Of a stretch of 64,000 bases of DNA, positions 1-44,613 are shown in pieces. The position numbers and the translations under genes were made by a program. Under the pieces are notes generated by a model. The model did no database searches and was not told where the DNA came from. It was given only the letters and a program-made list of their open reading frames with translations. This DNA comes from Cycas panzhihuaensis (lineage: Eukaryota > Plantae > Cycadophyta). Each line of letters starts with the position of its first letter. The stretch's first letter is position 1. Location of the stretch: NCBI GenBank assembly GCA_023213395.1, contig CM041465.1:127603741-127667740 (forward strand). Direction: 5' to 3'.

Positions 1-334
1 CTTTCATGTGCATTATGTGTAATTTCATTTCACCTAACTCAAATGCTCCCTCTCTCAATATAAAAGTAAAGCTCAATGGAGGAGATTCATTCTTACCTCC
101 CCATTTTGTGAGAGCTACTTTCTTTCTCTCAAGTCTCTCTTGCTCCCATGTTTGCCTTTGTGTTTAGTGCATGGAGATGAAGGATAGGTCCACTCTTTTC
201 AACTACTTCATGAGAAAGGTAAGGGGCTAAGGAATACCTTGAATTGGTTTAATTATTAGCCATTTAAGAGTTGGCTTATGTGAGCCCTTTTAGCTTGGAA
301 AAAGGTATTTCCAATCGAGTTCATCTAAAGATTA

Positions 335-420
335 TTGAGATAGGGTTGATTTGGGTCCCTTATACTCTAGATAGTGTTATTATGTAGAGCTTATTTGAGA
401 TAGGGTTGAGTTGGGTCCCC
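335..420. repeat. Two copies of a 26-bp motif at 60-bp spacing inside degenerate, probably LTR-derived DNA
   Basis: ttgagatagggttgatttgggtccct (335-360) and ttgagatagggttgagttgggtcccc (395-420); surrounding 1-1347 ends in gggttgtgaca, a typical Gypsy LTR 3' end, but no partner LTR is visible. Confidence 0.5.
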
Positions 421-2986
421 TATGCTCAAATTATTCATGGACTCAATACTTGAAGGAGGACTTTAAGTGAGTCAATCCTCATTCCTATAAGGATTGAGTA
501 AATCCCCTTTACATCATTCTTGGTGAATACTACTAAAAACTTGGTTAGTTAATGGGATATGCATGTAGGTATGGTCTATTATTTTTATCTCCTTGGACTA
601 CTTTATGGGTGTTGAATTTATAATTTAAGATGGGGTTAAACTAAGTCCCTTGTATACTAATTATTATTATACATGGGGTTAAGTAGAGTCCTCTCTCATT
701 TATGATAAGTGGCATGGTGTGAGACATAATGATTACATAGTGAGGTAATCCACTAAGATTTCTTCAATAGTGAGAAACATGTGGTGTGGCATTCTATGAT
801 TTGGGTTTAAAAGGTGAAAAGAGTATGAAAATTATAAGAAATTATAAAAGGGATTGTAAAGTTTATAGTAGTAGATGATTTAAGAACTATAACCCAAGGA
901 AGACTTCTTTAAAGGGTTAGTCAGGGTTTGAGTGAAGAGTGAGTTACTAGCACTCCAATGTTCATATCAAGTGCTCTAACTAGGGGGCAATTTCCCTCTT
1001 CAAGATTGTGATTAGTTGAGTAGTGAATCCCTTTGTAGTTGGTTCTTCTCCTTGATATATATCTTTTAAATTGTCCTATTTAAATAATGCAAACCTATGT
1101 TCTCTTATATTGTATTGGTTATATTATGGTAGACAAATAAAATATATTATAAATGCATAAGCACCCCTATTCAGTTGAGCTTATCACATCTACTAGGTGC
1201 ATATTTCTACTATAATTATAACATTTGACCTAAACTTTTTCAAATTTAAGCTTTTAGACAACTTGGTGCTTATCTTCTTGAGTAATTGAGTCAAGTTATT
1301 AATAAGACATTTGTCATGAGTATTTTGAGCTTAGAAGGGTTGTGACATAGATCTAGTGTTAGTTTAAGGACCTGCTAATATGCTCATGCTTGTTTAAAGT
1401 TGTGACAATTTTGGGGCAATTTGCATTAAATTAATAGAGAGAACTTTATTTTTTTTATGGATCTTTATTATGCATGTGGCCCCTATTTTAAATATATCAA
1501 TGACTATGTTTATCCATATAAATTAATGAACAAAAGTTTATTACTTTGAGTCCTCAATGAAGGTATTATCACCATGCATTGGTGGATCAAGTAGCAATAG
1601 GCATGGATGGTTGTATCGTCATATTATACAAAGAATGAAGGTTTTTTTTGCTTATTATAAAGGTAGTTATGAGTGTCCTAGTGGGGATTTATTGTCATTG
1701 TGAGTAATATATATTTTTAATGAATTAGATAATATACTCACCATTAAATTTGAATGAAAATCTCTTATAAAGTAATTTGTTAAAAATACTATTTAAATAA
1801 ATGAAGAGATATCATGATATTATAATCTAGTATATATGAAGAGGGTGGTAATTAATTGAATGGTAACTTTGTTAATCATTTTATGGCAACAATTGAGGCT
1901 TAAAATCATTATAGTAGATTAATATAAAAATTAGGTTATTTTTACATGCTTTGATCTTATTTTCTACCATTTTTTATTTTATATAAGGGTATAATATTAA
2001 GTGATTATTATATAAATGAGAAATCTATATTTTACAAGAAGTTTTTTTGAAGAACAATGATTGTTAGGCATTGGGGGTCCTCCATGTCCATGGGCATTTT
2101 TTGGGTAATTTAAACATTATTTTAGCATTTGTTAGCTTTTATGGAGGGTGTTACAAAGTGTAGATGGTAGATTTACACTCAAATCTACCATCTCTATTAA
2201 AAATTTATTTAAACAAAAGGGTTTTTATGGCCATTAAACTATTCTCCTTCTCATGGGGATATAAGATAAAACTTCATATACTTTCATTCATTCTTGATTG
2301 TTTTTGTTAATATAAACTTACAAATAGGTTTATCTTTGTTAGGTAACCATGTGGGCAAACTTTCATTAAAATCTATGATTGTTTGATGGAGAAATTTATG
2401 ATTAAAGAGCCTTTGATTGTGTTTAAGCCAAAATCTCAACGATTAATTATTTTTTGATGAAATTATTTGACCTAATATTATAAAGTTTAATTGAGATATT
2501 AAATTACTCTAGAATGTTATTTCAAATCTATCAAAGTTAATAAAATTAAAATCCATGGTCTTATGATGAAGTTTGATGGGAGTTAAGCCCCTAACAAAAT
2601 GGGTTAATTCATATTTTTTGAGAAATTTATAATTTTTTATAAGTTGTAGTATTTCTATCATAATTTTTTTAACATAGATTGAAATTCACTTTTGACTTTG
2701 CCATTAGAAATTGGACTCAGGCACAAATGAAATTAGTAGTTATATAAGTAATTTTAAAGAATATTTGATATATTTATTACAAATCAAATTTGATAAAAAT
2801 AGATATATGGTACATAAACTTCTAGGAATTCAAAGTTAGTAATTTGGAGTCTAATTTTATAAAAGACTTTTTTTTTTTAATCTGTACATTTTGTTGAGCT
2901 CTATATTTGTACAATAATAATTTTTTAAAATTCATAGTTTTGGCTCATGAGAACCTATTTTATTGAAAAAAGTATAAAAAATATTT

Positions 2987-3035
2987 TGTGTGTATGTGTG
3001 TATGTGTGTGTATGAGAGAGAGAGAGAGAGAGAGA
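2987..3035. repeat. Compound (GT)n/(GA)n microsatellite
   Basis: tgtgtgtatgtgtg... followed by gagagagag... Confidence 0.9.
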
Positions 3036-3154
3036 TTAAAAGATTAAATTCTAGATAATATGATGTTATTGATTTAAGAATTTAGAATTTAATATTGATA
3101 TCATATTGAAATATACTCATTATATATATTAGAAGTATATCAAAGATGTATAAT

Positions 3155-3600
3155 TGTTAGAAGTATTAATGTCACTTTTATGTTATTCTTAAGTTATTAT
3201 TTAAGTCACATGTGTAATTTATGATTTAAGTGATTCTAAAGTTAAATGTTTAGAGTTTTATTTAATTATTATATGGAAGGTCATTGAAATGTGTAACTAC
3301 CTATTTCAACGAACCTTTCTTGGTATTAATTATTCTTCTAGATTCAAGAATATGGTTCCTGGAATCTAGGAGGCTGTCTAGAAGCCTATCTCAAGGCTGG
3401 TTTTATCTTTCATAGGTAGTTTTATTTATGGTTGATGTATAGTATTTCTTCTTAATAAAATTCTAGATTTATGAGGTGGTTTTTCTTCCCCAGAAGGGGT
3501 TTTCCACCTATCAACCTTGTGTACATGTGCATTGTCTCTTTCTCTTATATCTTTTCTGTTCCTGTGATGTTATGACTTTGTACATGTGCCTATTCTATTA
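3155..3600 (+). repeat. Copia-1 5' LTR
   Basis: Direct repeat of 10224-10658; begins TG, followed by PBS. Confidence 0.95.
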
Positions 3601-3612
3601 TGGTATTAGAGC
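3601..3612 (+). promoter_or_regulatory. Primer-binding site (tRNA-iMet) of Copia-1
   Basis: tggtattagagc, 11/12 match to canonical tggtatcagagc, abutting the LTR. Confidence 0.92.
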
Positions 3613-3901
3613 TTTAAGAACAAAAATGTCCAAAACATTCCATGAAGCAGCCAGTATTCTAAGGAATGATAGCCGGCTAATGGGAAGGCTGTTTAGAATT
3701 GCATGAATTATCATCATCATCTTTTTATAGTATAGGCTATTCTTCCCTTACTTTTAAAATGGACAAATTTGTTCCGTTGGCTTCCTGACCATCCCCTTCC
3801 ACTTTGCTGGAACCTTGGTTAAGTTGAACCCATCCTTTTGAACTTTTGGATGTGGAATTCTAGATACCTTTTCCTCAAGCAGAAGTTGTTTACTTTCTCT
3901 A

Positions 3902-3994
3902 TGGAAACATGCCAAAGAATCTCTCACCGTTAGAAGGCACCTTATCGCCTGCTTCTGCTTTGAATACACCACCTTCTTCCCATCTCTTATGCAC
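3902..3994 (-). pseudogene. Captured fragment of a cytosolic leucyl-tRNA synthetase gene (N-terminal region just before the HIGH motif)
   Basis: Minus strand reads VHKRWEEGGVFKAEAGDKVPSNGERFFGMFP, ungapped against the eukaryotic cytosolic LeuRS pattern VxKxWExxxVFxAExxxxxPxxGEKFFxxFP(YPYMNG) recalled from memory. Confidence 0.8.
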
Positions 3995-4347
3995 CATATT
4001 TGAAGAAGCCAGACCATTCCAAATACACAATTATTTTTAGAGGTGAGAACATTAATAGTGCAAGAGTGGAATCTGTTCCTATTCCAAGATTATTGAAGCT
4101 GCTATTGCTTCTCGGTAACATCTTCTGTGAAGAGAAACCTCTGTGCTTTTGTTAACATAGAGAAAAATAATGGTAGTCTGCACGATAATGTGACTTTAGA
4201 GGCTGAGGTTATCTCAAAGCCCTTTTGGTCAGCACAAATAGCACTATCCACCCAAAGAAGAATTAGCCAAAGGACTAGGCCCTCCATCTCGAGATCTGCC
4301 TGTGGCGATAAGAAGCCAAACCCTAGCCCATATGTGACTATGTAGAT

Positions 4348-4447
4348 CTGCACCAAATTCCACCATTCGAGAGAAAAATCCTCCACCTGGGATGAAGAGT
4401 AGAGCGTTAGGATTTAAAGTGGATCCTGCGTATGATGTAATGGCCAT
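4348..4447 (-). pseudogene. ERD15: Captured 5' fragment of an ERD15-family (PAM2-motif) gene, frameshifted by a short internal deletion
   Basis: gccATGG start, MAITSYAGSTLNPNALLFIP, then frame change to QVEDFSLEWWNLVQ; matches the ERD15 signature STLNPNAPLFIPxxxRQVEDFSPEWWxLV. Confidence 0.88.
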
Positions 4448-5083
4448 GGCGATCTTCAAACAAATCCTAGGTCAACTCATCTCCAACCTAAGCTTCTAGG
4501 CTGAGTCTTCGGATGGCCTAAATTCTCCTACTCATGCTTGCTTGTGTTTGGTTGACGCCATCAACCAAATCTTCATGCCTGCAAGCCCTCGCCACTGCCT
4601 CAATTCAACAAAACCAGGTAGGGTCTCGATTAACCTACCCCCCCCCTTAGACCTCAATTCAATTCAAATTCGATTCTCTTTAGTATAATGTAATTCCCCA
4701 TCGGGTCTGTGAACTCCAATTTTTTCATTTCCTTTTTTTTTAAATTTCATTTTTTTTAATATATAATCTTATATATATATAAACGTTTAATTAAACCTAA
4801 GTTTTTTTTTTATTAAATATTAATAAATAAACCCTTTTTTTACCTTAATAAACTCTCATTTACAAATTAAAATCAATATCTCCCCTTCTTCAATTAACCT
4901 TTAGTACTTAAAATCAACATTGCCTTATTATATGACATTTAATTAATCATTACAAAAGCTTTCCCCCTTTATATATTATCACATTTAATTATAAAATCAA
5001 AATAAACTATTTCCCCTGCCTAATATCTTACTTTATATTCTATTTATATGTCATATATAAGGTATGTATCACCGTTAAAACAT

Positions 5084-5233
<150 letters not shown>

Positions 5234-5253: not shown

Positions 5254-5297
5254 ATACCTTTCTCGGCCTTTTTTGGCTAAGATCAAGTGTATCATCT
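5254..5297 (+). pseudogene. U2: 3'-truncated U2 snRNA fragment (first ~42 nt)
   Basis: atacctttctcggccttttttggctaagatcaagtgtatcatct versus plant U2 5' end ATACCTTTCTCGGCCTTTTGGCTAAGATCAAGTGTAGTATCT; starts at U2 nt 1, similarity stops just after the branch-point-pairing region. Confidence 0.9.
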
Positions 5298-5963
5298 ACT
5301 CTATAATGGTGTTACGCAGATTACATTTGTAGTTTTGTCAAAAAAAAAATAAAAAAATTCTATACCTAGTATAAATACCACTAGAATTTTCATAAGTCTA
5401 ACAATTTTAACTTGGGAAAACTACATGTGTTACATAAATATGTTTTAATGTCTTCTAGCTTTTAGTAGATGTTATTCTCACATCTTTTACAAGATTTCTT
5501 CAAGGTACCACAAACATGCTACCAATTTCATCATGTGGTTGGTAAATATTATTGAGGTACATTTTATTTAGCTAATTTAATTCTCATTTTTAAAGGCATT
5601 AAAATAAATAAATACTCGTTAAGTTCTTTTTGAATTACTATATTCTTTGCCTTATTTGCTAACCAACAATAGTAAAACATAGGAATTTGAACACTTATTT
5701 TTAAGGGGAAGTATTTATTTTTTAATTAAGGAGAACTATTTCTTTAAGAGGGACTATTTTTTTCTAAGAGGAATTATCTATTTAGGAACATGTGTTTTTT
5801 AATTAAGGGAAAAGCCAGTAATACATGCTGTAATGCTTTCTTTTTCATCTTTTAATCATTCCTGTTAAAATGTTAATTTGATGATTAGTAATCTTACTAA
5901 GTGATTATTTTTCTACCTACCCTTAAATCCTTCAATTTTCAATCAAACTTGATAATTCCCAAT

Positions 5964-8900
5964 ATGGTGTTAATGCCAAGAACCACCACCTGCATTCCAA
6001 TTCTGGTATTAACTGGCTCAAACTATGCCGACTGGAGGAATCACATATCCCATCAACTTAAACAATAAAAGATATGGTGATATGTGACAGGTGAATTTAA
6101 AAAACCAAAAGATGAAACTACAAAGAGTTATATGGTATATCTAATAAACTCAGATTCAGCCTTAAGCACCATATTAAACTCACTTTCACCAGAAATCAAT
6201 CGACAGTTTTTTGAAACAGATGACCTAGCCACTGTCTGGAGAACTCTGCAAGAAAAATATGATAAGGTCGATACAAATCAACTAGCTATCTTAGAACAAT
6301 AACTGTATGATCTTACTTATGATGATTTTACCAATGTTGGGGATTTTTTATGTAAAATTCAATTAATTAATAAAGACCTAAGTAATTGTATTAAATCTAA
6401 AACTAAAGAAGGTGATATTGAAAAAATAATCACGCATGCTAAAGAACACGATACATTCATCCATCTTGCAATAAACAAATTGCTAAAATATTTTAATTTT
6501 TTTAAAACTACTAGACAATAAGCTAACAATCCTCCGATCACATTCAATTAGTTAACAAACCAACTAGTTGAACATCAAACAATGTTGATTTAAATAGGTA
6601 TATTAAAAGATCATTCATAGGCTTTGTTTTCCAAAACTAAGCCATAAAATAAAAATAAACAATAAAATAATTCTAATCCAAAATTTCAGAAACCTCCTAG
6701 AGGTTCTCAATTTAATTTTTAAAATAATACTAAGCATTCTGGTCCATCTAAATATCAGAATATTTCTAATTAGTCATTTCCTAATCAGAACAATATAAAT
6801 CCTTCTTAGAACACTAGTTGTGCCTATTATCATAAAAGAGGTCGCACTATTAATGTCTGTAGAAGTAGAATCACTTCGGAGATATGGAAAGCTTCTAAGG
6901 GATTACAAAATTGACCTTAATCCTGACCATAATCCCAATCTCAAAACTGATAAACTCTTAATCGTTCTTTAATGGCAACAATCTCTGTATTTGTTGCCCT
7001 AACTAATCAACCACCACAATGGATCCTTGACTCTGGTGCATCCCACCACATGACTGGACACCAAAAAAATTTACCCACTTATCAATCTAAAACTAACTCT
7101 AAAGAAGAGATTTCTTTTGGATGTGGAACTCAACTTAGGATTAGGTGATGTTATCTTAAAAGACAGTTCGATAACACACATCTTCTATGTACCAGATTTG
7201 TTACAAAACCTACTTTTTGTTTATTAAATCTACGAGAAAGACCTTATCGTCAAATTCTGGAAAGATAAATTTATCATTAAAGATCCATTAAACAAATTTA
7301 AATGTATTGCCTTAGGACCTTTTAATCATAACACATGTCTCTATAGTTTAACAAGTCTACAAAATAACAAAACAAAACCCTTTAGTATTTTTATTGCCAA
7401 ATTTGACTCAGTTAGAAAACTTTGGCATGTACGATTTAGCCATACAAGTTATGGCAAACTTCAATATCTAAAAAACATGAAATGGTTCATGGTCTTCCAT
7501 CCTTAAACATTGTTTATGGTGTTTGCGAAGCCTGTGTAACAGGTAAGCAACACATGGACCTATTTCCACATAAAACACAATTCAGAGTGATAGTTCCACT
7601 TGAACTTATTCATTCTGACATATGTGGACCTTTTCATGTAACATCATACTCTAGCTCTTATTATTTTGTTACATTTATTGATGATTATTCAAGAAAATAC
7701 TGGGTTTACATGCTCAAAGCACGCTGTCAAGTGTTTGATATTTTTGTTGAATTCAAAATACTAGTTGAAAACCAATCAAACTCAAGAATCAAAATTTTTT
7801 GATCTGATAATGCAAAGGAATATTTAAGTGGCAAAATCATTTCTTTCTTTAGAATTCACAGAATTCAGTTCCAACATTCCATTGCATACACTCCTCATTA
7901 AAATGGTGTTGCTGAACGCAAGAACCGTACTCTTATTAAGATGACTCATTACATGTTACATGCAAAGAATCTTAACCTAAAGTGATGGGCAAAAGTAATT
8001 GATTGCTCCAACTATCTTCTAAATAGTTTACTTAGCAAATGCTTACAAAACGTTACTTTAGAGCAAAAATGGTCTAGAAGAAAACCATCTATCAATCATT
8101 TACGAATCTTTAGAAGTATTACGTGGGGATACATCCATAAAGAAAAACGCAAGAAACTAGATCTTAAAAGTCAAAAATACATCTTCATTGGATATAACAA
8201 AGAAAGTAAAGCTTATAGACTCTTGGATCTAGTTACGCATTAAATTTTAATTTTGCATGACGGAATATTTGATGAAGAAGGATCTTCTTCAACATCTACT
8301 TATGTAGAACTTCCTGTTGAAAATTTGTTAACCAACACTTATTTGGTTGACCCTTCTGACAAATAAGCTGATCCAGAAATTATAGAATTTTTATCTACTC
8401 AAGTCCATAATTGGACTCTATCTGAATCTACTGAAATAGATTCTTCCTCCTAAGCTAGTTCTACAAATCAACTTGTAACTTCAGAAATAATTACTAACAA
8501 ACATCCTATTTGGGTAACGAAAATGCTTGCTAATGATGGATCTGATGTAGGTAATCCTTAAGGTACTAGACGAAATCGTGCCTAAAAATTATATGCTAAC
8601 TTTACCTTAATGGTAAAAATAATGGATAATAATGATCCCATAATATTTAAATAAGCTAGCAATAATCCTGTATGGCAGGAAGCTATGTAAACTAAATTCG
8701 ATGCTTTAACTAAGAATCCAACTTAGGATCTCATACCACTCCCACCTGGGAAAAATGTAGTCGACTATAAATGGGTTTATAGAACAAAATATAACTCAAT
8801 AGGCGTAGTTAAAAAATATAAAGCTCACTTAGTTGCGAAAGAATTTTCTCAAATTGATGGAATTGACTATAACAAAACCTTTGCCCCTGTTGCAAAGATG

Positions 8901-10177
8901 AACATGATTAAAATAATTATTGCTCTCACAGCCAAATTTGGTTGGGAAATCCACCAAATGGTTGTCAAGAGTGCTTTTTTGAATGGTGATCTCAAAGAAG
9001 AGATCTACATGTCCTAGCCACCTGGCTTCATTGGTAATCCTAATTTAGTTTGTAAATTAAAGAAATCAATTTATGGATTAAAACAAGCTCATCGAGCTTG
9101 GTATACTAAAGTTGACGATTATTTAATTCAAATTGGATACACTAGATGTACTAGTGATCCAAATCTATATTTCAAATATAAAAATAAAAATATTACTATT
9201 TTAATCTTGTATGTTGATGATATTATAATTACTGAATCATCAACTAATAACATTCATAGTTTAAACTCTACTTTAATGAATAAATTTGAAATGACTGATC
9301 TAGGTATCCTAGATTATTTTCTTGGATTACAAATCTATCAATATGATTCAAGAATCACAATATCACAACCTAAAAATATTTTATTCTTAATTCAATTGTT
9401 TAACATGGAAAATGCTAAATTCGTATCTAATCCGTTACAATCAGAAGTTAAATTATCTACTAATTGTTCATCACCTTTATATGACCCTACATTATATAGA
9501 TAACTAATTGGTAGTCTTATTTATTTAACTCATACCCATCCTGATATTTCCTATGCTATCACTTTATGTTTACGTTATATGCAACAACCATATGAATCTC
9601 ATTGGAAAGATGCTAAATGTATCTTACGATATCTTAAGTATACTATTTTTTATAGTCTAACTTATAATTTTTGTAGTAAACCTCTAACTTTAACTGGATA
9701 TACTGATTCAAATTAGGCAGGCGATATAAATGATCGAAAATCTACATCAGGTTATGTATTTTTTATAGATTCTTCACCTATTACTTGGTCTAGTAAGAAA
9801 ATATAGGCACTAGTTTTATCAATGACTAAAGCTGAATATCGTACACCTGTTGAAGCTAGTAAAGAAGTACTTTAGCTCAAATCTCTACTAAATAAAATTG
9901 GTCTATCTCTAACTCTTCCATTGAACTTAAAGTTGATAATCAAGGTGCCATTGGTATTGCTACAAATCCAGTTTCACATTCTAGGAATAAACATATAGAA
10001 TTACATCAGTATTTTATTCCTAATCTTATTACTGATAACATTGTTTCCTTGTCTTATTGTCCAACAGATCTATAGGTTGCTGACATACTTATAAAGTCTT
10101 TAACTGAAGTAAAGTTTCTAAATCTATGAGATCTGTTAAAGATAAAAGAAGTCTCCATCAAAAGAAGATCAACGTGA
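5964..10177 (+). pseudogene. Copia-1 gag-pol polyprotein, multiple stops and frameshifts
   Basis: LTGSNYADW (gag), CAYYHKRGR..NVC (degenerate knuckle), WILDSGASHHMT (protease), CEACVTGKQH / LELIHSDICGP / FIDDYSR (integrase), LYVDDII (RT), LTGYTDS..AG and HSRNKHIE (RNase H). Confidence 0.95.
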
Positions 10178-10223
10178 TGAAGACCTTATTTTTCTCTAGC
10201 ATAAATGTTAACATTAAAGGGGA

Positions 10224-10658
10224 TGTTAGAAGTATTAATATTACTTTTATGTTATTATTTAAGTCACATGTATAATTTATAATTTAAGTGATTCAAAAGT
10301 TAAATGTTTAGAGTTTTATTTAATTATTATGTGGAAGGTCGTTGAAATGCACAACTGTCCATTTCAGCGAATGTTTCTTAGTATTAATTCTTCTCCTAGA
10401 TTCAAGGAGATGGTTCTCGGAATCTAGGAGGTTGTCTAAAAGCCTATCTCAAGGTTGGTTTTGTCTTTCATAGGTAGTTTTGCTTATGGTTGATGTATAG
10501 TATTTCTTCTTAATAAAATTATAGATTTAGGAGGTGGTTTTTCTTCCCTAGAAGGAGTTTTCCACCTGTCAACCCTATGTACATGTGCATTATCTTTTTC
10601 TCTTATATCTTTTCTGTTCCGATGATGTTATGACTTTGTACATGTGCCTATTCTATCA
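10224..10658 (+). repeat. Copia-1 3' LTR
   Basis: TG...CA, preceded by PPT, followed by TSD ATAAT. Confidence 0.95.
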
Positions 10659-13600
10659 ATAATCAATGAATCATATCACGAGGAAGGTACACAAATTATA
10701 TATCCAGGGTAAATATTGAACAACAACATTAATAAAGTATAAATAGATTAAACATACAATAATCATTCACCATAAGAGATAATGGATTTATACGTGAAAA
10801 GCTTAGTGTAAGAAAAACCACAGGAGAAAGTCAGAGTTGGAAACTCCTCTTAATGATATTAAAATATTACATCTCTAAATGAGTTCTTCCTCTATTAATC
10901 CTTTCTTAAGTTCTTAAGTGGTGTGTGTATCTATTTATAGATATGTCACCTCACAAATATCCTATAATATCTCTTGAGCTTTTTCATCATCCAATAGGAT
11001 ATGCACATGAATAATCATGTATATTATATTTATTAATACTTTTGGTGACTAGGATTTTATGTGGATATATAACCATATATTAAATATTAGATATAAAAAT
11101 ATTATATATTCTAACATCCCCCTTTAATATTTAATATTTTTAAATCTTCAAATTTTATTTTCAACCTTAGTCTTCAATATCCTCTACTTTCCTTGTATAT
11201 TGGAATCTATAAACTTGTATCAAATTGAATAAAATTATATCACCTACAACCTATAAATCTATCAATATCATGCTTATTTTCAATAAGAAATTATCTTGTA
11301 ACCTATATATAGTTATCTGTGATCATTAATGACTAACTATGAATAACCAACCTGTAATATACTTGTATACGAATCATCAATTGTTTATTAAACATCAACT
11401 AATATACATGGCTCTTACTATTATATTTATATAAAGTATTCTCTTGAATAACTTTATATCTTCACTTGTAAAGTTGTTATCAATCATCGACATCTGCAAA
11501 CCTATTATCTTAACAATTTTAAAAACTAAAATGATTATTACTATCCATATAAAATAATAACCATTTATTGAAATATATGGATAAATGATTATTGTAATTG
11601 TTAGTTCTCTAAGATGTACTTCTTGTATGTAGTTCATTAGTAAATAAGAGTAGCATAAAGTATCTAACCTCTTACATATGAGACTAATAATATACTTTGT
11701 ATGTTGTATAAGGGTAGTCTCATTTACTCACCTTTTGCATATGAGTAAATAACTTGTATGCTGCCTCCATCAGTACTTTTACACACATCTTCTATAGCTC
11801 TCTTTTAGCAACTATTAAATAACTTATTAACATCAACAAATTAATCATCTAAGCATACTAACTCTAGGAACCTGGCATACTAGTTGGGCAAGATAAGTTA
11901 GTTATAACAAGGTAATACAAATAGTGTGTTCCAATGCTTCTTATCATAAATTTCTCATTGAAAATATATATTATATATTAGTTAGACAATCTCAATAATT
12001 GAATTTTGGTACTAAGTAAATAATATATGATACTTTTCTATGTCTCATAAATAGGTAGAAATTTCACTGAATTATCATATCAACTTATTTCTCTAACAAA
12101 CAACAAATGATGTGCCCCTTATCATTTAGGGGGTGTCTTTAATCTCAAATAGGTGTCTAATAAACTAAGTGAATATAACATTTGATTATTGTTATAGTCA
12201 CTTTCTCAAATGTACTCAATACAAAGGGGGATTTGTATTATATCCAACATATGTCAAAAGATTTCCACATCAAATTTATTCCATATATTTAGGTTTTTAT
12301 TTATTTTGAGCTTTAAATATTATAAGTAAGACTTTATATATTTAATTTTAAATGAAACTTCATTTTTCATTCATCATCTATTGATAATAACATTATCATG
12401 ATCTCTAGAGTCTTTAAAAACAATAGAATATACCAAAATAGATTTGAAAAATGTTATAAAATGCAACTTTTATGAAGTTAAAACTATTTTACTAAACTTT
12501 ACCTATTAAAATATTTATTAATTAATCTCTAAAATATCCCTTGTGACTACTCATTCAACCATCTAGAAATTCTCTTTTTAATGCAATTGGCGACTTGAAA
12601 ATTAAGCACTTTAATGAAAAGATATTATAAGAAAACTATTAGTATATCTTAGAAAATCATGTGGTCCTTTAGAAAATGAGTTTAGCTTCTTTTAGCTAGG
12701 TTCTTGGTCACATTAGATCCTCCACATGACTGATTGTTGATGACTTGGGGGCTTACTGATGGATTGCATAAAAGATTTAAATTTAATTAAATATATTAAA
12801 ACATCATGTCCACTTAATAACACATACCTCATGGGTTACTATATATCTACTAGTATATGCATATTGCTTATTTTATATAAATCATTTGCTGATGGTATTA
12901 TTGGTTCACTTACTTCATAACTTCATTTATTATTTATAACATCTTTAAATTTATCATCTTCTTCATATCTCTCAACAATAAATTTATTCCAAAAATACCT
13001 TTGATTGGAAGAAAATCCACAAGCTAAAGTGGATAAAAAATATCATAAATGAAAATTGGGTAAGAGAGAGGCCATAATTTATCTTATCTAATCTTTCTAC
13101 TATTAATTATGAAATTTGGTGAGGTATCTAGTCTCATAGAATCTTAGTCACTTTTGTAGGTAGATGGCCTATATAGGTGAATGCAACTAGTAATAATATT
13201 TCTCTCATATCTTCTTCATTGGTGGACTAACTTCAAACCTACATGCTCATGAATATAGGCCTACACACATAAATATATATCCACAATAAATTTAATATCA
13301 ACATATCATCAATTTGCTATATTCTTAATGCATCATTATCTCCTATATATAACTCTAATAAACTTAATCTTACCTTAGACTCTCAGTCATATGTCATTGG
13401 TATAAATGGTATAATTAGCTTTTGTCTTATAAAAAATATACATCAAAATGGCTCATATACTAGCTCATATATTAACTTTGTCACTAGTTCAACTAATATC
13501 TCAATATGATTATGTATAGGTTTGTTGCTTGCTTCCACAAGATCTTTTATAACATGGCTCTAATACCGTGTCAGAATTTAGAATTTAACTGTGATACCAT

Positions 13601-16600: not shown

Positions 16601-16779
16601 CTACCATTTAATGCTATTATCTTTGTAAAATTAAGCAAACTCTCTTGAAGTGTATTCACCTCTATACACCATGCTTAAAATTTCTAATTTTTTAAAATGC
16701 TTTTAATTTCTTGATCCAGGAGGATCTACCATATGTTTACAGGATGATGAAAATGCTAGGCATTGGCATAACTAAAAGA

Positions 16780-17325
16780 GATATGGCCAAATGGTATCAA
16801 AATTCTATGATTTTTTTTTTAAAGGGATAAGACACATCTCACTAGATGTGTACAAAAGGTGGGGTTCAGAAAATATCATTTGATTAGAGTTCAAGCCTTG
16901 TCTTTGCATAAAAATTAATCCCACAGCTAGCAGAAAAAAATAGAAAATATATATTATGATTATATGAATAGAAACATGGCCAAATGACATCCAAATGAGC
17001 TAAAATTTTGAGGAAGCGGAGGAGACATGCGTTCCTATACATATAACAAATTTGAGCTAAACTGGAGTCCGTTAAGGTCAGTTACAAGCCATAACTTGCA
17101 AGAATTGCATGAAGGCCACTTAGACAGCAGAAAAATAGCAAATACATATTATTATTAAATGAATAAAAATGTAGTCAAATAACATCCAAAGGAGCTGAAA
17201 ATTTAAGGAAGCTGAGGGGACATGCGTTCCTATAGGTGTACCAAATTTGAGCCAAATTGGAGTATGTTAAGATCTGTTACAAGCTACAAATTTTTAAGAA
17301 TTGTATGAAGGCCACTTGGACAACA
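16780..17325 (+). repeat. ~195-bp tandem repeat (2 clear + 1 degenerate copy) within Gypsy C LTR; also at ~22435-22980
   Basis: Unit ...caaatgacatccaaatgagct(a/g)aaa..ttgaggaagc...acatgcgttcctata...aaatttgagc...gttacaagc...gaattg(c/t)atgaaggccactt recurs at ~16980 and ~17176, weakly at ~16788. Confidence 0.85.
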
Positions 17326-17898
17326 TGCATTCTGGTGGTTAGTGGTTATACTTGCATGATTGCCACTTGTTAAACATGCAATTCAGGTTTCTTTCTATAA
17401 ATTGAGCCCTTCTACAGGTTGGAGAGGTGGTTCTTGGAGACTTGACTTGGGAAGCATCCTTGGAGAGGCATTTGGAGGGTTGGAGTCCCCCTTATGGTAT
17501 AATTGTAACATTTATTCCTTGTAATTTTACCATTCTTTTGCTAGTTGATTTCTCCACCATTAAATGGAGATTTTTATGGTTTAATAAAAGTATTACTCCC
17601 CATACTTTTGGATGAATGTCAAGAATAAATGATTTGGTGTAGAATTTTCCTTTCATGGGCTCATTGTTGTTTTGATGTTATTGAGCTTTCTACACTAACT
17701 CCCAGGATCTCAAGGAGGAAAGGTTGATAATTGATTTCTTCACCAACTAAGATCTTTTGGGATCATATTTTGGTATCAGAGCCTCTGATCTTTGTTGTAG
17801 GGACTTGAATGGTATAAACAAGGAAAGGATACAAAGAGAAAGGTGAAGACTTTCTTGTGTTGCAATCACCAAGAAGACAAAGAAAGAATCCAAGCACC

Positions 17899-20800
17899 AT
17901 GGTCAAAAGAAGATGGAGAAATTAGATTTGAAAAGCTTGAGAAGAACGTAGAAGCCTTGATGCAAATGATGACCCACCTTCTACCTCTAGTCAAAGGAAA
18001 GGCAAAGAGAAGGAATTTGAAGGAGGATCCACATATGACCACGACCATGAAGAGGAAGAGGAGGAGACCTTAAAGCACTCTTTTGAAGAAAGCAAGGGTA
18101 CTTCATCTCATCAACCCTTCAAGGTGGAGGCAAAGTTGGATATTCCAACTTATGATGGAGAGGTAAATGCTGAAAAGTTGGACCATTGGTTGGATCAACT
18201 TGAAACCTACTTCACAATCTATGCTTATAGTAATGCTCAAAAGCTTTCATTTGCTAGGCTCAAGTTGTGTAAACATGCATTGACATGGTGGAATGCATAT
18301 TTGAAAACTCATGATGTATCTTCTTTTCATGGAGGGATTTTAAGAAAATAATAAAGAAGCAATTCTACCCCATAGGTCATGAGGAAGACCAATGGGTCAC
18401 TTGGCAATATTTACGCCAAGGAGAGGTGTAAGTGTCCAAGACTATACTTCTTTATTTTTAGGCATGGCATGCTACTTGGTATTAATATGGATGAACATGT
18501 CACTCTTATGAAATTCATTGGAGGATTACATGAATACATAAGGAAGGAACTAAGGCTTTTTAAGGTTCAATCCATTGGAGAAGCAAGTAGGATGGCTATG
18601 GCAATAGAAAGTAAAAGTAAGAAATCTACATTCATATCTAAAGATTCTACTTTTACTTCTAATAAGTATGAAAAGAATCCTAAATTGCACTCATCAAAAA
18701 GACAAGAAGGAAAGAGGAAAAGAACTAATTTTGTTAAAAGTTCTAACTATTGTGAGCATTGTGATATTAGTGGTCATATTACAAAAAGTGTTGGAAGTTG
18801 CATCCGAACTAAAGCCAAGCATATCAAGGATATGGAATTAAGAAAGAAGAAAAAAGGGAAAGCACTACTTTCTGAGGTGGAGATTCAAAGTGAAGGAGAA
18901 GAAGAGAAGGTCACTCTACTTACAAATTATGAAGATGATGCTACAGGAGGAACTATTTCACTTGAAGCTTCAAGTAGGAAATAGTATGATTGGTGCCATT
19001 ATAGATCCGGAAGCCAAAAGAATTTGATCTCGAGAAAGTTTGGTAAGAGCATTGGTTTGGTAACTACTCCTCACCCTCATCCATATCCTCTTGGTTGGAT
19101 CCATAAAGATGTGGAAATGCAAATATCAAAGCAATGTACACTTAAATTTTCCATCACTAATGATTTTGTTGATGAGGTAATATGTGATGTGGTGCCCCGG
19201 ATGTATGCCATGTTGTGCTTGGAAGTCCCTACTTGTGGGATCGAGATGCACTCTTCTATCGAAGGGAGAGAAAGTATCGATTGATGAAGGATAACAAGGG
19301 CTTCATCATAAAGGCCACAAAGAAGCACTTGGATAAAATAGCATTAATTTCAGCTACTCAAGCAAAAGGATGATCAATGCATGTGGTAAATTTGTCATCT
19401 TAATGGTAAGGAGAAAAGAAGAGCCAAGAGATGAAGAAAGTCCTTCTACTCACACTCTTCTTATATCACCTAAACAAATGCAACAAATTGAGGAGTTAAA
19501 GACAAGGTATGATATTCTATTTCAACATGTTGATGGGCTTCCACCAAAGAGAAAGATAGAGCATGAAATCACTCTTGTAGGAGATGCACCATTACCTAAT
19601 GTTGCTTTGTATAGCACTCCATTGTAGAAAATAATGAGATAAAGAGGCAAGTTGAGGAGTTGCTTGATCAAGGGGTCATAAGACCTTCATGTTCACCTTG
19701 TGGGTCACCAATTGTCTTGGTGCCTAAGAAGGATGGAGGATGGAGAATGTGTATAGATTTTCGTGCTTTGAATAAAATTACAATTAAAAATCGCTACCCT
19801 TTGCCTCGTATAGATGATTTGCTTGATCAAATTCAAAGATGCTTGTTATTTCACTAAATTGGATTTAAAAGTGGTTATCACCAAGTTAGGGTCAAGGAGG
19901 AGGACACATGGAAGACGGCCTTCAAAACAAAGCAAGGACTCTTTGAATGGATGGTTATGCCTTTCGGATTGTGTAATGCTCCGCAACATTCATGAGGCTA
20001 ATGAATGAAATATTAAGGCCTTACTTGGATAATTTTGTGGTTTACTATCTTGCTGACACTTTGATTTTCAAGAACACATGGGAGGAACATTTGCACATAG
20101 AAGAAGTTTTAAAGACTATGGCTAAGCATCATTTGAAGCTTAATGTGAAGAAGTGTGAATTTGGCAAGGAGAACTTGATCTTCTTAGGCTTTGTGGTTGG
20201 AGGAGGAAAGTTAAGCATTGATCCACTCAAGACTCAAGCCATCCTCAAATGGCCTAGGCCAACAAACATCACAGAGGAGAGAAGTTTTTTAGGAGCTTGT
20301 CAATACTTGAGAAAGTTCATTCTTCATTTCTCACAGGTTGCAACACCTCTACATGGATTGACAAAATCTAGTAGAAAGTTTACTTGGGGTTCTAAGGAGG
20401 AAGAAGCCTTTCTTCTTTTAAAGAAGAAAATTTGTGAAGCATCGGTTTTGGCAATGCCAAATTTGCAAAGGCCTTTTGAAGTAGAAGCTGATGCAAGTGG
20501 AAATGCGATGGGAGTTGTCCTTATTCAAGATGGGAAGCCTATTGCGTACCATTGGAAGTCTTCACCCTCAAGTGAAGAACTACCCAACATATGATCGAGA
20601 AATGTTCGCACTTCATCAAGCATGCAAGCATTGGAGGTCATACTTGCTTTCGGAAAAGAGGTTGTAGTTCATACCGATCATAAGCCTCTTCAATTTTTAC
20701 AAACTCAAAGTAAATTACAAAGAAGCAAGACACATGAAGTGGATGAGTTATTTACAACAATTCAATATTGTAATTAAGTATAAAAGGGATCTAATAACAA

Positions 20801-22345
20801 AATTCGATATGTTATCTAGACCACCTTGTTCCACTTCTTCTTCTACTTTTGTATGTAGTTCTCTTATGAGTTTGCGGGTGGAACCAATGCATCATGAAGA
20901 GTACAAAGACTTGTACCATGAAGATGAAGCTTTGAAGGAAGAATTAGAGAACCTAGCGAAAGGAAGACCTTCCCACTTGCTTGGAAGGATGGTCTACTTT
21001 TCAAAGGAGAGCGACTCTGTGTTCCATCAAAAGGAGACAAGATCAAGTGGCTTAGAAGCCCATACTTCTAAAGTAGTGGTCACTTTGGTATAGAAGACTT
21101 TAGCAAACTTGAGAAGATATGTTGTATGGCCAAAATGCAAAATGATGTAAAAATATGTAAAAGGATGTGTAATGTGTAATACTTCTAAGCCTTCTTCTAG
21201 AAAATTAGGATTGTATACACCACTACCTATTCCCACTAGGCCTTGGGAAAGTATCTCCATTGATTTTTAGGGGACTTCCCATGACTAGGAAGGGACATGA
21301 TTATCTTTTGTTGTTGTAGATAGGTTTAGTAAAATGATATGTCTAATACCTTGTAAGAAGACAATCACAGTGCAGGGAGCATTTGAGTTATTCTTCGAGC
21401 ATGTATGGAAGAATTTTGGCTTGCCTTCTTCCATCATTTCGCATCGTGGACACTCGATTCCTTTCATCATTTTGGAAGTCACTATGGGAGATGATGGATA
21501 CCAAATTGAAGAGGAGTACAAGTTTCCATCCTCAAGCAGATGGACAAACCAAGTAGTGAGCAGAACTTTGGTACATCTATTGAGGATACAATTCCAAGCA
21601 TCCAAAGACTTGGGATGAATCATTGGCTTTTCTACAATTTGCTTTTAATAGAGCAATGCATGCATCACACTCTAAAGCACATTTTGAAGTTTTTTTGGGA
21701 TACTTACCTCAAAGTCCATTTGACTTAGAGTTTTCCATGCAAGCTAAGGAAGGATCCGTCAAAGAGAAGGAGGAGCATGACAAGGCTTTAAGATACTTGG
21801 AGAAGATCCAGAGAGTCCACAAAGAAGTACATGATCAACTTCTAAGGACTCAACAAAAGTACAAGGAAAGACATGACAAGTATAGGCAAGAGTGTACTTT
21901 CCAAGAAGGAGATTTAGTATGGTTATACTTGAGCAAGGAGAGGTTAAAAGGAGAAGGTAAGAAACTCAAACCTATAAGGTATGGACCATTCAAGATTTTG
22001 AGAAAAGTAGGTGGCAATGCTTTCCAACTTGATCTTCCACCTTATATGCAAATATATTCTGTAGTAAATGCTGAATACTTAAAGCTCTTTGAGCCCTCCA
22101 TGCTAGATGAGGAACAGGACCAGTTCACTTTACCTTGATTGATGATTTGTATTTGGAAAGTGAGGAGCCTCTCAAGGAAGATTGTATCTTGAGAGAAAAT
22201 CTTCCAAAACAAGACATAAGACACATGAATCTTTCAAGATTGGAGTAGCAGGGCAATTGCCTAGTAAGGCCAAGTGGTTTAGTAGGAAACAAGGAGAACA
22301 AAACTTCCCCCATCTCCAATTCTAAGCCAAACAGGAGTTGGCTAT
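17899..22345 (+). pseudogene. Gypsy C gag-pol, broken by many small frameshifts (ends approximate)
   Basis: ORF pieces: KLDIPTYDGEVNAEKLDHW (gag), CEHCDISGH (knuckle), IIDP/SGSQ (protease), [28 protein letters not shown] (RT), VEADASG (RNase H), PWESISIDF and YGPFKIL (integrase). Confidence 0.93.
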
Positions 22346-25300
22346 TTTCCAAGGAAGGGGGAGCCATGATCCAGGAGGATCTACCATATGTTTACAGGAT
22401 GATGAAAATGCTAGGCATTGGCATAACTAAAAGAGATATGGCCAAATGGTATCAAAATTATATGAAATTTTTTTTAAAGGGATAAGACACATCTCACTAG
22501 ATGTGTACAAAAGGTGGGGTTCAGAAAATATCATTTGATTAGAGTTCAAGCCTTGTCTTTGCATAAAAATCAATCCCACAGCTAGCAGAAAAAAATAGAA
22601 AATATATATTATAATTATATGAATAGAAACATGGCCAAATGACATCCAAATGAGCTAAAATTTTGAGGAAGCGGAGGAGACATATGTTCCTATACGTGGA
22701 ACAAATTTGAGCTGAATTGGAGTCCGTTAAGGTCAGTTACAAGCTGCAACTTTCAAGAATTGCATGAAGGCCACTTGGACAGCAGAAAAACAGCAAATAC
22801 ATATTATTATTAAATGAATAAAAATGTAGTCAAATGACATCCAAATGAGCTGAAAATTTGAGGAAGCTGAGGGGACATGTGTTCCTATAGGTGTACCAAA
22901 TTTGAGCTAAATTGAAGTACGTTAAGATCTGTTACAAGCTACAACCTTTTAAGAATTGTATGAAGGCCACTTAGACAACATGCATTCTGGTGGTTAGTGG
23001 TTATACTTGCATGATTGCCACTTGTTAAACATGAAATTCAGGTTTCTTTCTATAAATTGAGCCCTTCTACAGGTTGGAGAGGTGGTTCTTGGAGACTTGA
23101 CTTGGGAAGCATCCTTGGAGAGGCATTTGGAGGGTTGGAGTCCCCCTTATGGTATAATTGTAACATTTATTCCTTGTAATTTTACCATTCTTTTGCTAGT
23201 TGATTTCTCCACCATTAAATGAAGATTTTCATGGTCTAATAAAAGTATTACTCCTCATACTTTTAGATGAATGTCAAGAATAAATGATTTGGTGTATAAT
23301 TTTCCTTTCATGGGCTCATTGTTGTTTTGATGTTATTGAGCTTTCTACACTAACTCCCAGGATCTCAAGGAGGAAAGGTTGATAATTGATTTCTTCACCA
23401 ACTAAGCTCTTTTGGGATCATTTCTACTTCAAAAAAACAACCTAAACTTTTCAAGAGTAACTATCAATAAATTTAATAAAATATCGATAACCATTGAATA
23501 GTGTTTGAGACATGGGTTTACAAATGTTGAAATGTATTAGGCCCAATAGTTCCTCAACATGCTAAGCTCTTCCATTTGATCTGAATGGGGCCTAATGATA
23601 TTTACCCATAACATGAGCCTCATAAATACATTTGGTCTACTTAATATTTGGTATTTCATATACTATATTCAATTTGAAAAGTAGATGAAGGTTATCCATA
23701 TTCAAATGACGAAGGCATTGATGCCACAATTAGTCATTTGGAAGTCTTTAAGAAACAAGTGTTTTTAGACTAGATTGCTTATTAATATTTGAAGTTGAAG
23801 AAGAAGTATTTGAAGTAGAAGCTATATTACTACAAGAGATAGTTTTAGTTGGCAAAAATAAAGGTCTTGAGATTGCATCAAGCTTATATAAACCTTGGTC
23901 TTTATATCTAAAAGTAATCAAATTACCATTCAAATATTTAATTAAATATTTTCCAAGGTGACTTAATAAAACATAGAACTTTTACTTATTTATCTAGCTA
24001 ACTCATACTAGATTACATGTCATATCGAGGACATAAAAGACATTATTAAGATGATGTCAAATATCAAAATTATTCAGAGATATGGGAGCATTATTGATCT
24101 TAGAAACCTCTAAAATAGTATCATTATCAAATATAACTAATTGGTTCTGTAATAGCCTTGTATTTGTAAGTAGTTCTTTAGAACTTGTCATGTGATGAGA
24201 GGCTCCAAAATCTATCAACCAGGGTTTATTAGAATGATATGAAGTTGATGTAACAAGGAAAAGAACTTCTAAATTATCCATGTGGCCATCTTGATTCTAA
24301 TTTCATCTTTGGTTATGATTTCTATTTTATTGGTTACCTAAAGGGGCATTTTAATTTTGTCTTCTTAGATCTTGATAGGCACTTTAGTTTTACCTTTGTG
24401 GCCCTTGATATTTACCACATCTATAATTCTAACTACTTTGTGTAATAAGGTGGTTTTAATGCTATTACTATTGAAGATTAGTTTTCTTCTTCCTATAATT
24501 AGGTGCAATATGACTAGGTTTTTCATAGTAGTGACAAACAACCTAAGTGGGATATTATGGTCATTGTTAACATTATTGATATGGATGTTGGTTAAAATTC
24601 ATTAAACTAATTACATAGTTAGATGTGGATGCTATTATCTCCCTCTATGATGTGATGTAAAGGCTAGAGATGAAGAGGAGGCACTTGAATTTGCTAGTTT
24701 GTTAGAGTAGAAGACCTTCAAAGGTGTTGAATTCAAGCATGGCAAGATGATCTATATAAGATAGGTTAGATATGAGGTAATCATATCCATCTAACAAAAA
24801 AATGATTATACAAGATATAAGATCATTGTTATATAATATTTATCCCATAACACTCAACTAGTTCTTAATCAATTTGATCTATGTTAGATGGAATGAAATT
24901 GATGCATCAAACATTATAGAATAGAGTTGAGCTTTGAGCATGACAACTCTTCCATTATCCTTTCTCTTGTATAATATATAGATTATATTCCAAGTTGCAA
25001 CAAAAGGGGGGGGGGTATGTTTAATATTTTTCTCAACATTATCTTTATAGGATAAGTGTAGGAATAAAAGGACAACTTCATCAGATTCTTTAAAGGTGAT
25101 TAAAGTATCAAGATCAACAAGAATGACAACATCAAGATCATTAGATCTCTGGTATCTTTAGGCATGGGAATTAACAAAAAACATAAGCCCATAATTTGTT
25201 TATTATTAGAATATTATTAATTTATTTCTTTTAAGCTAAGAAATTATCACTACTAGATAGTTTAATTATGTTAGTTGGACCATTTGAAGTGCCATTTTAT

Positions 25301-25818
25301 CTCAAGGATGTGTTTTATCTACCTAGAAAGGTTTACTAGTCTAGTAGCTATAATCTTTATCTCCTTTCCTAATAGCCCTTAGTAGTTGAGACAATTCTAT
25401 CTAATGGCATACTTACTCATAAGTAATAGCTTAAGGACCATATATACCCAAAAGTACATAGGTACTAGTGAAGGCTCTATTGCCCCCTTAACATTGCTAA
25501 CCCACTCGCACTAGATTTATGGCCTAATTGACAAATCCTTGTCTAAGGGTATACTTATAAACAAGGCACTCACATTCTCTAAATCTAGCCTAGTCTCCAA
25601 AATCTAAGGTTTAAGTAAACATCTCAGCTTACCACTCCATACACCTTATAGCTATTGCCTCCCCCTATAGTCCATAGAGTTTAAGAAAGAATAATAATGT
25701 ATGCGGGAGTGGTAAATTTAGGGGTCCTAACTAGCCTCCTTGAAAATCTTGTAATTAGGGTGGCTCACTTAGGAGTTATCTTATTTAATATTTTAAGTTT
25801 TTTTCCCCTTAAATTTTG

Positions 25819-25942
<124 letters not shown>

Positions 25943-27342
25943 ATTTTTAAATAAAAATATATCAAAAACTAAAAAGGTCCCTAAAAACTAAAAATACTAC
26001 TTAAAATAGATTAAAAAATAAGTTTAACATTACTAAAGATGGGCTAAAAAATGATTAAAAATGATAAAAAATAAAACTTTAGGTTAACACTAAAATTAAA
26101 AAGGGAATATTCTTTGAATATACTAAAATATATAACTTAAAGTTTTGAAACTGTAGAAATAAAAAATCAAATGATGAGTTTAAAAAAAAAGAGTGATTGA
26201 ATGGGAATATAGAGGGTGATTTCTCTCCATTAAAGCTATGAATTAAAGAATTGGCATTGTATTTGGGATGGGGATGCTACAAGGATCTCATTAAGTGGTC
26301 ATAGTGCACAATTTTATCCATCACATTATGAACAATAAGCCATTAAAAAATGTGAAGTCACCTAAATTACTTTACAACTCAATCGATTAATTGATTAATG
26401 AGTGAGCATTTACCATGCTTGAAGATTAGAATCACCCTCTACTTAAGTCTTAATACTTGTTGTAATTTTATAATGTTTGCCTTTCTTGCTATAATAAGGA
26501 ATATACCTAAATGAAGTTGTTGCCATAATATAATTTAGATAAAACACAAAAAGCTATTTATCTATAAAGGTTCAACCAACTAAATTGATATGGAAGGGTT
26601 TTAAACATATAAATTCATCTCTTAAACACTCAAAACTCTTGAAAGAATCCCACGGTTGGAGATGTTAAAGCTATAAAATAGGAATTCACTTACGGGTCAT
26701 GAGAAATAAGATATGGTCGCACTAAGGTTTATAGTCAACAAAACCTAAAAAGATCTATAAAATAACAAAACCTATCTACCTTATGTAAATAACTAGAATC
26801 CATAATAATAGTAAAGCTAGAGATAATATCAACAACATCCCCACCTGGATTAGAAAAATCTTAGTGAGAACTGAGATCAACCTAACCTAGAAATGGAAAG
26901 TTAAAAAATGCCTATTAATTAAGACTTTGATATATGTCAACTTTACTAAGAACTATTATTAATAAAGGACTACGTTTTTAGCTCCTTTTTTTGTTATCAT
27001 TGAAAACAAATGGGAATTTAGTGGCTCCCATGTTATAATTAAGATTTAGAAAATTTTTGACAGAAAGCCTAACTCTTTAAGTTATATAAAGTAGAATAGT
27101 ATTTGCTAGAAAACTCTTTATGTGTGGCATTTACAACTAGTCAAGGAAATATGCCCCATTCAATCTGAATGCCATCTTCCACATAGATATTCCATTCCTT
27201 CTATGAATTTTGTGAGAGGTCGAGTTATCACCACAGCCATACTAATTCGCAATTCAACTCCATATCTGAAAGTGTGAAGAGTATTTCCAAAAGCATAGTT
27301 AGGATAAATATTTGTGATTTAAAAAATATGAAAATTCCATCT

Positions 27343-27474
27343 AGAATGTTTACTAATTTGGGCCTAAATGAAGCTAAGGAGTTAGAAGAGAAAACACATG
27401 CTCTTCTAAATAAAAGAGTTAGAAAAGTAGAAGGTAAGTAGATTAATGAAAATTTGAAGGCATTGACTGCCAAA
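27343..27474 (+). pseudogene. RPL12: Captured fragment of an organellar-type ribosomal protein bL12 (L7/L12) C-terminal domain, antisense to Copia-B
   Basis: RMFTNLGLNEAKELEEKTHALLNKRVRKVEGK*INENLKALTAK aligns without gaps to bL12 consensus RxxTxLGLKEAKxLVEKxPxLLKxGVxKEExExIxEKLKAxGAK. Confidence 0.85.
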
Positions 27475-33990: not shown

Positions 33991-34005
33991 ACAAAGGAAA
34001 AAAAG

Positions 34006-43544: not shown

Positions 43545-43559
43545 ATTAGATCACGACAA

Positions 43560-44122
43560 ATTACAAATGAGCATATTACAGTCTGAGTAAATCATGACTG
43601 TTTGATAGACGTTGCAAGCAGGTCGTGATTTAGATTAACATTATGAGCAGGTCACGATTTGGGTTAAGGTTACGAGCAAGTTGGGATTTAGATTGACATT
43701 GCGAGGAGGTCATAATTTAGATTATCATTGCGAGAAGATCGTGATTCAAGTTAAGACTGCAAGCATATTACAATTCACACTAAGCTTGCAAGTAGATCAC
43801 TATTTGGATTATCATTACAAGTATATCACAATTTAGGTTAAGAAGATGAGTAGATTGTGATTCATGCTGAGATTGCGAACAGATCATAATTTAGGTCGAG
43901 ATTGCAAACAAATTATGATTCTGGTCAAGATCGTGAGCAGATCATTCTTCGGGCTGAGATTGTGAGCAGATTGCGATTCGAGTGAAGAGTGTGAGTAGAT
44001 TGCGATTCAGGTCGAGATTGCGAGTAAATCGTGATTAGACTGAGATCGTGAGCAAATTGTAGTTAGAGTCAAGATCACGAGCAAATCGTGATTTAAGTCA
44101 GGATTGCAAGCAGATCATAGTT
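43560..44122 (+). repeat. 29-bp minisatellite, ~19 diverged copies, in the putative LTR of Gypsy G
   Basis: Units such as ttgcgaacagatcataatttaggtcgaga, ttgtgagcagattgcgattcgagtgaaga, tcacgagcaaatcgtgatttaagtcagga in near-strict 29-bp register. Confidence 0.92.
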
Positions 44123-44247
44123 TACCAAAGAATAATGTTTAAATAAATTATATTTTATATACATGAGAATTAGCCATTATACCTATTGTAACTTATTATG
44201 GTTGAGGCCATTAGGAATCATGTATTTAAAGGAAAAGGGAAAGGATG

Positions 44248-44613
<366 letters not shown>

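Follow-up and report, generated by a model that had tools for sequence, protein, structure and literature searches.

A variable GC-rich array with probable host-gene fragments directly behind the PBS of a decayed plant Copia element

The window, that is, the whole 64-kb stretch of DNA analysed here, consists of nested, decayed retroelements of a land plant, with a GC content of 30.7% and a CpG observed/expected ratio of 0.20, which denotes strong CpG loss. One of these elements, Copia-1, lies on the plus strand. Its 5′ LTR (3155-3600) and 3′ LTR (10224-10658) are 90.8% identical over 433 columns (K2P 0.10), and it is bounded on both sides by the 5-bp TSD ATAAT (3150-3154 and 10659-10663). The 5′ LTR is followed by a PBS (3601-3612) with 11 of 12 matches to a Met-type motif, which we take to be of the Met-initiator type, and a PPT (10216-10223) precedes the 3′ LTR. 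The gag-pol region (5964-10190, +) has decayed, with many stops and frameshifts, and carries on the plus strand, in this order, Retrotran_gag_2, Pol_BBD, rve, SH3 and RVT_2 domains. Direct LTRs, TSD, PBS, PPT and a Copia-type domain order place the element in Ty1/Copia; it is full-length in outline, though decayed. From the PBS to the reference point in RT we measured 5.4 kb, giving a long leader; in distant Copia loci this distance was 2.9-4.0 kb (15 of 79 loci having a PBS motif at such a range, the distances being worked out by hand from two tables).

Copia-1 and a second element, Copia-B, each interrupt one LTR of an older minus-strand element (3077-28237). A younger Gypsy-like element (16712-23421), whose LTRs are 96.6% identical, is nested inside Copia-B. 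A GC-richer insert (32080-38190, +), LINE-like by eye, with endonuclease-, RT- and RNase H-like stretches and an A-rich end, sits within an element having LTRs at 29531 and 38653. CpG-rich degenerate tandem repeats (43560-44120) lie behind the 5′ LTR of the 42422-50186 element, and a PBS-like motif (57985-58000, +) after the second LTR of the 51150/57675 pair suggests a tandem or recombined arrangement. Pfam searches on 12500-13572, 39016-40402, 54500-55522 and 1-3002 gave no convincing match and, apart from the pieces described below, no other host gene was found in the parts of the window scanned.

Directly 3′ of the Copia-1 PBS stands a GC-rich variable array (3613-4640, +, right edge approximate), followed by an AT-rich, higher-copy part of the leader (4641-5230, +) which ends in a (TA)73 run (5084-5230). 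As the first-pass annotation had noted, this block of about 1 kb is richer in GC than its surroundings: 41.8% over 3613-4620, against 30% in the LTR and 23% in the following 440 nt. The mean for 1008-nt windows was 30.7 ± 5.0%, and besides the array, windows of at least 41% GC occurred only in the LINE-like insert. The GC step of the leader coincides with the PBS. The 79 Copia loci mentioned above, fetched by their RT and only 32-45% identical, showed no similarity to the array, and a search of metagenome contigs with the LTR-end/PBS pattern gave 0 matches.

The best characterized piece of the array (4348-4447, minus strand, antisense to Copia-1) corresponds to the N-terminus of ERD15/CID1 from its start codon, and comprises a PAM2 and the adjacent motif in a frameshifted reading. 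A 41-aa piece matched PAM2 with E=8.6e-4 (19.3 bits, cut-off 20). Compared by eye with ZmERD15c, as given in the supplement of PMC9779859, it has 9 of 11 residues of the PAM2 motif and 11 of 13 of the adjacent motif, in the correct order; the layout described for the family in the accessible part of PMC4574140 is PAM2, then PAE1 (a search for the motif letters in the supplements of that paper, where alignments may be pictures, found none). About 14 nt are missing from the window copy at the frameshift, which splits the two motifs and matches a short deletion in this copy. A sister contig covering the piece (X1 record 8) shows 14 gap letters in the alignment. A word-based protein search with the second ERD15 frame, which requires exact shared words, was blank, and a library-wide phmmer search with the LeuRS/ERD15 frame returned 0 proteins at E<=0.001. 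The assignment of this piece to ERD15, also made in the first-pass annotation, is well supported by its sequence. The GC-rich stretch upstream of its ATG (4448-4640, −) may be ERD15 5′ UTR and/or a further piece.

A second piece (3902-3994, −), likewise antisense to Copia-1, had been read as leucyl-tRNA synthetase (LeuRS). It would cover part of the N-terminus and stop immediately short of the HIGH region. We searched with a LeuRS N-terminus profile built on 81 archaeal loci, 3 of which were verified as LeuRS; removal of short and duplicate rows left 77, and the HIGH-region motif used for fetching was trimmed off, save its first two residues. The piece ranked first of 6384 six-frame windows of the 64 kb, with 11.6 bits, the next site scoring 5.7, and a whole-window E of 0.07. 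In the Atlas, 3 of 30 matches had a named family, tRNA-synt_1 stood on 11% of members, and recognition was below threshold. Five other sequence searches with the piece, including the word-based search and phmmer, were blank, and LeuRS peptides sought in a tobacco proteomics table were not found. The earlier identification thus has moderate support, from the profile rank and from the Atlas result, a weak lead to the same superfamily.

The identified donors account for about 200 of the 1008 nt of the array, about 80% being without an identified donor. Next to the PBS is a stretch (3614-3790) missing in one sister form and retained in others. It is followed by the most deeply covered piece of the array (3791-3891, −), which may reach back to about 3760. 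A VPAKWKG motif in it presumably recalls subtilases; a subtilase identity was tried and dropped, since Pfam on sliding pieces, PDB and a further search gave no support. Between the LeuRS and ERD15 pieces, 3995-4347 consists of pieces without a donor match and holds most of a 111-codon stop-free minus-strand frame. Stop codons on the minus strand of the array number 52, against 65 ± 5.7 in mononucleotide shuffles, a weak depletion. Apart from PAM2, the 48 sliding pieces submitted to Pfam produced only four chance-level matches; the word-based search of one minus frame (again by exact shared words) was blank, and PDB searches, made with two minus frames and two short pieces, found no meaningful match, the best, NDUFA12 at E=0.71, being rejected. 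The further coding-looking pieces announced by the first-pass annotation therefore found no donor by Pfam, PDB, word-based or phmmer searches.

A comparable arrangement is found in Copia-B, on the opposite strand. Its 5′ LTR (27974-27506, −) is followed by a degenerate PBS (27501-27490, −, 8 of 12 matches) and a leader of about 2.4 kb (25100-27490, −), similar in length to that of Copia-1. A C-terminal fragment of ribosomal protein L12 (27343-27483, +), antisense to this minus-strand element, lies 6 nt from the PBS; the gap of 14 bp previously given had been counted from the last clear codon pair. The L12 assignment, resting on profile matches (PF00542, E=1.3e-5; TIGR00855, E=1.7e-3), is solid. 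Pfam on 42 pieces of this leader gave L12 only; 26600-27340 may contain further decayed pieces. As had been stated, the two elements are unrelated in the sense that they have no DNA-level similarity, and they have in common the leader layout: PBS, gene-like piece, AT-rich tract, long TA run, gag.

Sister copies were looked for in public sequencing runs, eleven of which contain a small share of the stretch; none of those listed was of RNA, which has no bearing on expression. Contigs from four runs (four organism labels, four studies) were aligned to 3050-5050 at 80% likeness; these data being all contigs, depth is a rough guide only. In the three deep runs, 30 of 30 bins were covered, with 2-13 contigs per run at several array sites. 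Diverged contigs carrying parts of the mosaic came from all four runs. Three listed records span the junction at 3891, three span that at 3994, and the right edge of the array, at about 4640, is bridged by one record with at least 31 letters on each side. Since several diverged copies bridge array junctions, the mosaic is not private to the window copy. An X5 contig over 3856-4054, 99% identical over 199 nt with 2 differences and far nearer than the other contigs, represents either this very locus in a near relative or a duplicate of recent origin.

A block of this kind could have arrived when a Helitron or Pack-MULE carrying gene fragments landed 3′ of an ancestor's PBS and was then amplified along with the element; in the accessible part of bioRxiv 10.1101/777037, several fragments are reported in 68% of maize Helitrons and 50% of Pack-MULEs with captures. 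However, neither terminal inverted repeats nor a flanking duplication (Pack-MULE type, 8-11 bp TSD) was found around the block, and no Helitron-like end (TC start, hairpin and CTRR, A/T site) was seen by eye at either edge of this old sequence. In addition, the boundary is the PBS end, and sister forms break at that base. Such an insertion is very unlikely: no separate DNA-transposon termini were seen, and sister contigs carry the mosaic.

In the three deep runs, summed depth exceeded 1e4 in the best LTR bins, was 39-1211 in the AT-rich leader, whose low complexity may inflate it, and mostly 3-160 in the array. Array depth being below that of both LTR and AT-rich leader, the array is the variable part of the element, and breaks recur at the PBS end. 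Within the array, depth neither rises nor falls steadily: 73-382 over 3787-3987 versus 2-21 over 3988-4255 (three deep runs), so that the proximal piece is commoner than the distal one. Most of the 12 listed joints (7) are internal to the array; 3 begin at the PBS end, and the other 2 begin in the LTR. The PBS followed by 6 other letters and then 3791, without the first 177 nt, is a form seen in 5 contigs from all four runs, which fills two of the three listed PBS-end joint rows. A joint from 3613 to 4802, which brings the PBS to the AT-rich leader, is weak (1 contig, 22-letter side). Besides these three rows, a further jump leads from 3613 back to 3579, that is, from the PBS end into the LTR end. 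PBS-anchored joints are more easily detected, the PBS side being deep.

The direction of these changes can be read in two ways. At 3629, contigs with the proximal stretch number 6-13 per deep run, and the form without it is represented by 1-2 per run. The minus-strand reading across 3791 appears continuous by eye, in the subtilase-like pattern that the searches left unconfirmed; if so, the PBS joint truncates a piece and marks no edge. The window and one sister form differ at 3891 in that each has letters missing in the other, which requires two deletions or recombination, and a joint from 4389 to 4544 deletes most of the ERD15 piece. In murine leukaemia virus (MLV), faulty plus-strand transfer gives deletions from the PBS into downstream sequence (accessible part of PMC3185545). 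PBS-anchored deletions being a known class of error, the 3613-to-3791 joint fits loss as well as gain, and shows that the PBS end is rearranged but not in which direction.

Elsewhere in the window, at 55453-55515 (−), three PBS-like motifs spaced 31 nt, then two partial copies, lie behind the 5′ LTR of a minus-strand element. They resemble the back-jump from PBS to LTR end in the Copia-1 family, and may result from repeated out-of-register plus-strand transfer.

Taken as a whole, the pieces are very probably host-gene fragments in a variable, PBS-adjacent region of the Copia-1 family: they lie within an LTR element and are co-amplified with it. An RNA source is favoured by the presence of two conserved coding pieces within 550 nt, in a window whose scanned parts gave no other host gene. 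The three identified protein-coding pieces (ERD15, LeuRS, L12) are all antisense (n=3, p=0.125 one-sided). A switch onto mRNA during minus-strand synthesis usually gives a sense copy (PMC7264820, and the model in PMC5131818, as far as their accessible parts go), and this orientation is found in none of the three.

For the origin of the array, we give an even chance to faulty plus-strand transfer that captured antisense copies of co-packaged mRNA, together with later deletion. Plus-strand strong-stop DNA terminates in a copy of the PBS (PMC12789967). At the second strand transfer, RT would run off the tRNA primer and onto a co-packaged mRNA. Extension of the plus strand on an mRNA fragment would necessarily place an antisense copy behind the PBS, and microhomology near the former leader start could bring the extended strand back onto the minus strand. 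Repeated in successive active ancestors, such events would move earlier captures inward, and these would be trimmed and shuffled by slippage and by recombination between sister RNAs. Extension on mRNA would explain strand and position by one step, and the same leader layout in the dissimilar Copia-B fits this step. Against it stand the sense U2 piece described below, the 7 of 12 joints internal to the array, and the non-monotonic depth. The RT jump at the PBS proposed in the first-pass annotation thus agrees with the antisense pieces, the position of the block and the sister variation at the PBS, and is weakened by the U2 piece and by a joint that fits loss. Its second proposal, ordered addition, is consistent with the PBS joints and with the wider sharing of the distal AT-rich leader, and is at odds with the internal joints and the depth profile.

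We consider it rather unlikely that, instead, one or a few old chimeric captures occurred anywhere in the leader and were then eroded, the PBS joints being ordinary deletions without polarity; the captures would have come from repeated switching onto antisense or double-stranded RNA (e.g. RDR products) or from cDNA-templated repair. Chimeras that combine several donors and carry de novo bases at their junctions have been described (Tan et al. 2016, accessible part of PMC5131818), and PBS-anchored deletion is, from what is available of PMC3185545, an error already known. Internal deletions prevail in the joint list, the depth profile is non-monotonic, and the sense U2 piece would be a capture distant from the PBS. 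This account, however, has to assume something more to make all three coding pieces antisense, and leaves unexplained the antisense piece abutting the PBS of Copia-B, dissimilar to Copia-1 at the DNA level.

Capture at the DNA level, by double-strand-break repair with templated genomic filler in the insertion-tolerant leader of an active ancestor, appears decidedly improbable. Filler-DNA repair typically leaves short pieces with few extra bases at joints, and the short pieces seen here, with few extra joint bases and without TSD or poly(A), fit this; a non-exonic origin is also possible for the roughly 80% of the array mentioned above. Yet templates drawn at random from a genome full of repeats would seldom be conserved exons, no preferred orientation or position would be expected, and the GC content of the array is above that of its genomic surroundings.

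The U2 piece, which the first-pass annotation had overlooked, corresponds to the 5′ ~47 nt of U2 snRNA (5254-5300, +). It is sense to Copia-1 and lies just after the TA run. Its Rfam match (E=1.2e-4, 40.4 bits) is below the gathering score of 46. The only sense piece of the set, it needs a different route. Truncated U2 retrocopies are a known LINE product, and this piece may be one of them; with the LINE-like insert in the window, it is what speaks for successive LINE-driven retrocopies inserted into the leader as the source of the whole array. But no LINE-type 3′ poly(A) or TSD was found for any array piece, and the ERD15 and LeuRS pieces come from 5′ coding parts, not 3′ ends, which makes this source extremely unlikely. 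More generally, TIR, inter-unit repeats and poly(A) were looked for in the array and none was evident (poly(A) partly by eye), and the earlier remark that neither TSDs nor poly(A) separate the pieces holds.

Published work already covers gene-fragment capture by LTR elements, chimeras of several donors and the silencing conflict; for the first, see also PMC7264820 and PMC3726574 (accessible parts). In LTR-mediated retroposition (Tan et al. 2016, PMC5131818, and maize Bs1 cited there), judging from the available text, partial mRNA pieces of several donors are found inside an LTR element, with short de novo joint bases and amplification with the element, as here. There, pieces replace part of the internal ORFs, whereas Copia-1 keeps gag-pol; and transduced pieces are usually sense (accessible part of PMC7264820), unlike the Copia-1 pieces of about 100 nt, antisense and starting at the PBS. 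The main text of PMC5131818 does not contain the terms ‘PBS’ and ‘orientation’. Exon fragments in Copia elements, as in Copia-1, are described in gymnosperms (Bao et al. 2026, PMC13477047), where 13.68% of host TEs contain two or more captured fragments, and in maize Sireviruses (Muyle et al., bioRxiv 10.1101/777037), where the corresponding share of capturing elements is 15%, and a conflict involving siRNA and methylation is proposed in this connection; both are cited from their accessible parts. The Sirevirus captures show no orientation bias there, unlike the antisense coding pieces here. PBS anchoring is unreported in the accessible parts of both studies, and the main text of PMC13477047 has no ‘PBS’, ‘antisense’ or ‘orientation’. 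In the MLV deletions (Mbisa et al. 2005, as summarized in the accessible part of PMC3185545) the left break is the PBS end, as in the Copia-1 forms; those are losses in a vector assay, whereas Copia-1 carries a heritable stack of host-gene inserts. By analogy only, possible addition of foreign pieces at the leader-proximal end recalls CRISPR arrays. Unlike these, the Copia-1 array has no fixed piece length or dedicated integrase, and a search for constant repeats between its pieces found none.

Our literature search, largely confined to openly available papers, found no account of PBS-anchored or antisense capture, in line with the first-pass annotation. Older retroviral work appears to have dealt with cell-derived inserts near the PBS. 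A PBS-anchored antisense stack would be an undescribed form of the known LTR gene capture.

As to function, the array most probably persists as a tolerated passenger of the long leader, without being a selected system; passenger status is the default reading. That Copia families add antisense mRNA pieces singly at the PBS, as an ordered record of the transcriptome, and keep this cargo from housekeeping genes for blunting silencing or for regulation of the donors in trans, we find improbable. An siRNA/methylation conflict that makes silencing costly has already been proposed (Muyle et al., accessible part of bioRxiv 10.1101/777037).

About 400,000 TE-captured gene fragments are present per large plant genome (accessible part of PMC13477047). 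If true, the second-strand-transfer route predicts a genome-wide signature: captures that are antisense, PBS-adjacent and intron-less, the youngest nearest the PBS. Antisense copies of essential genes would then sit at the 5′ end of element transcripts, a cargo that would sharpen the published epigenetic-conflict model. If ordered, such stacks would also date and order family lineages, and would sample the RNAs present where the elements replicated.
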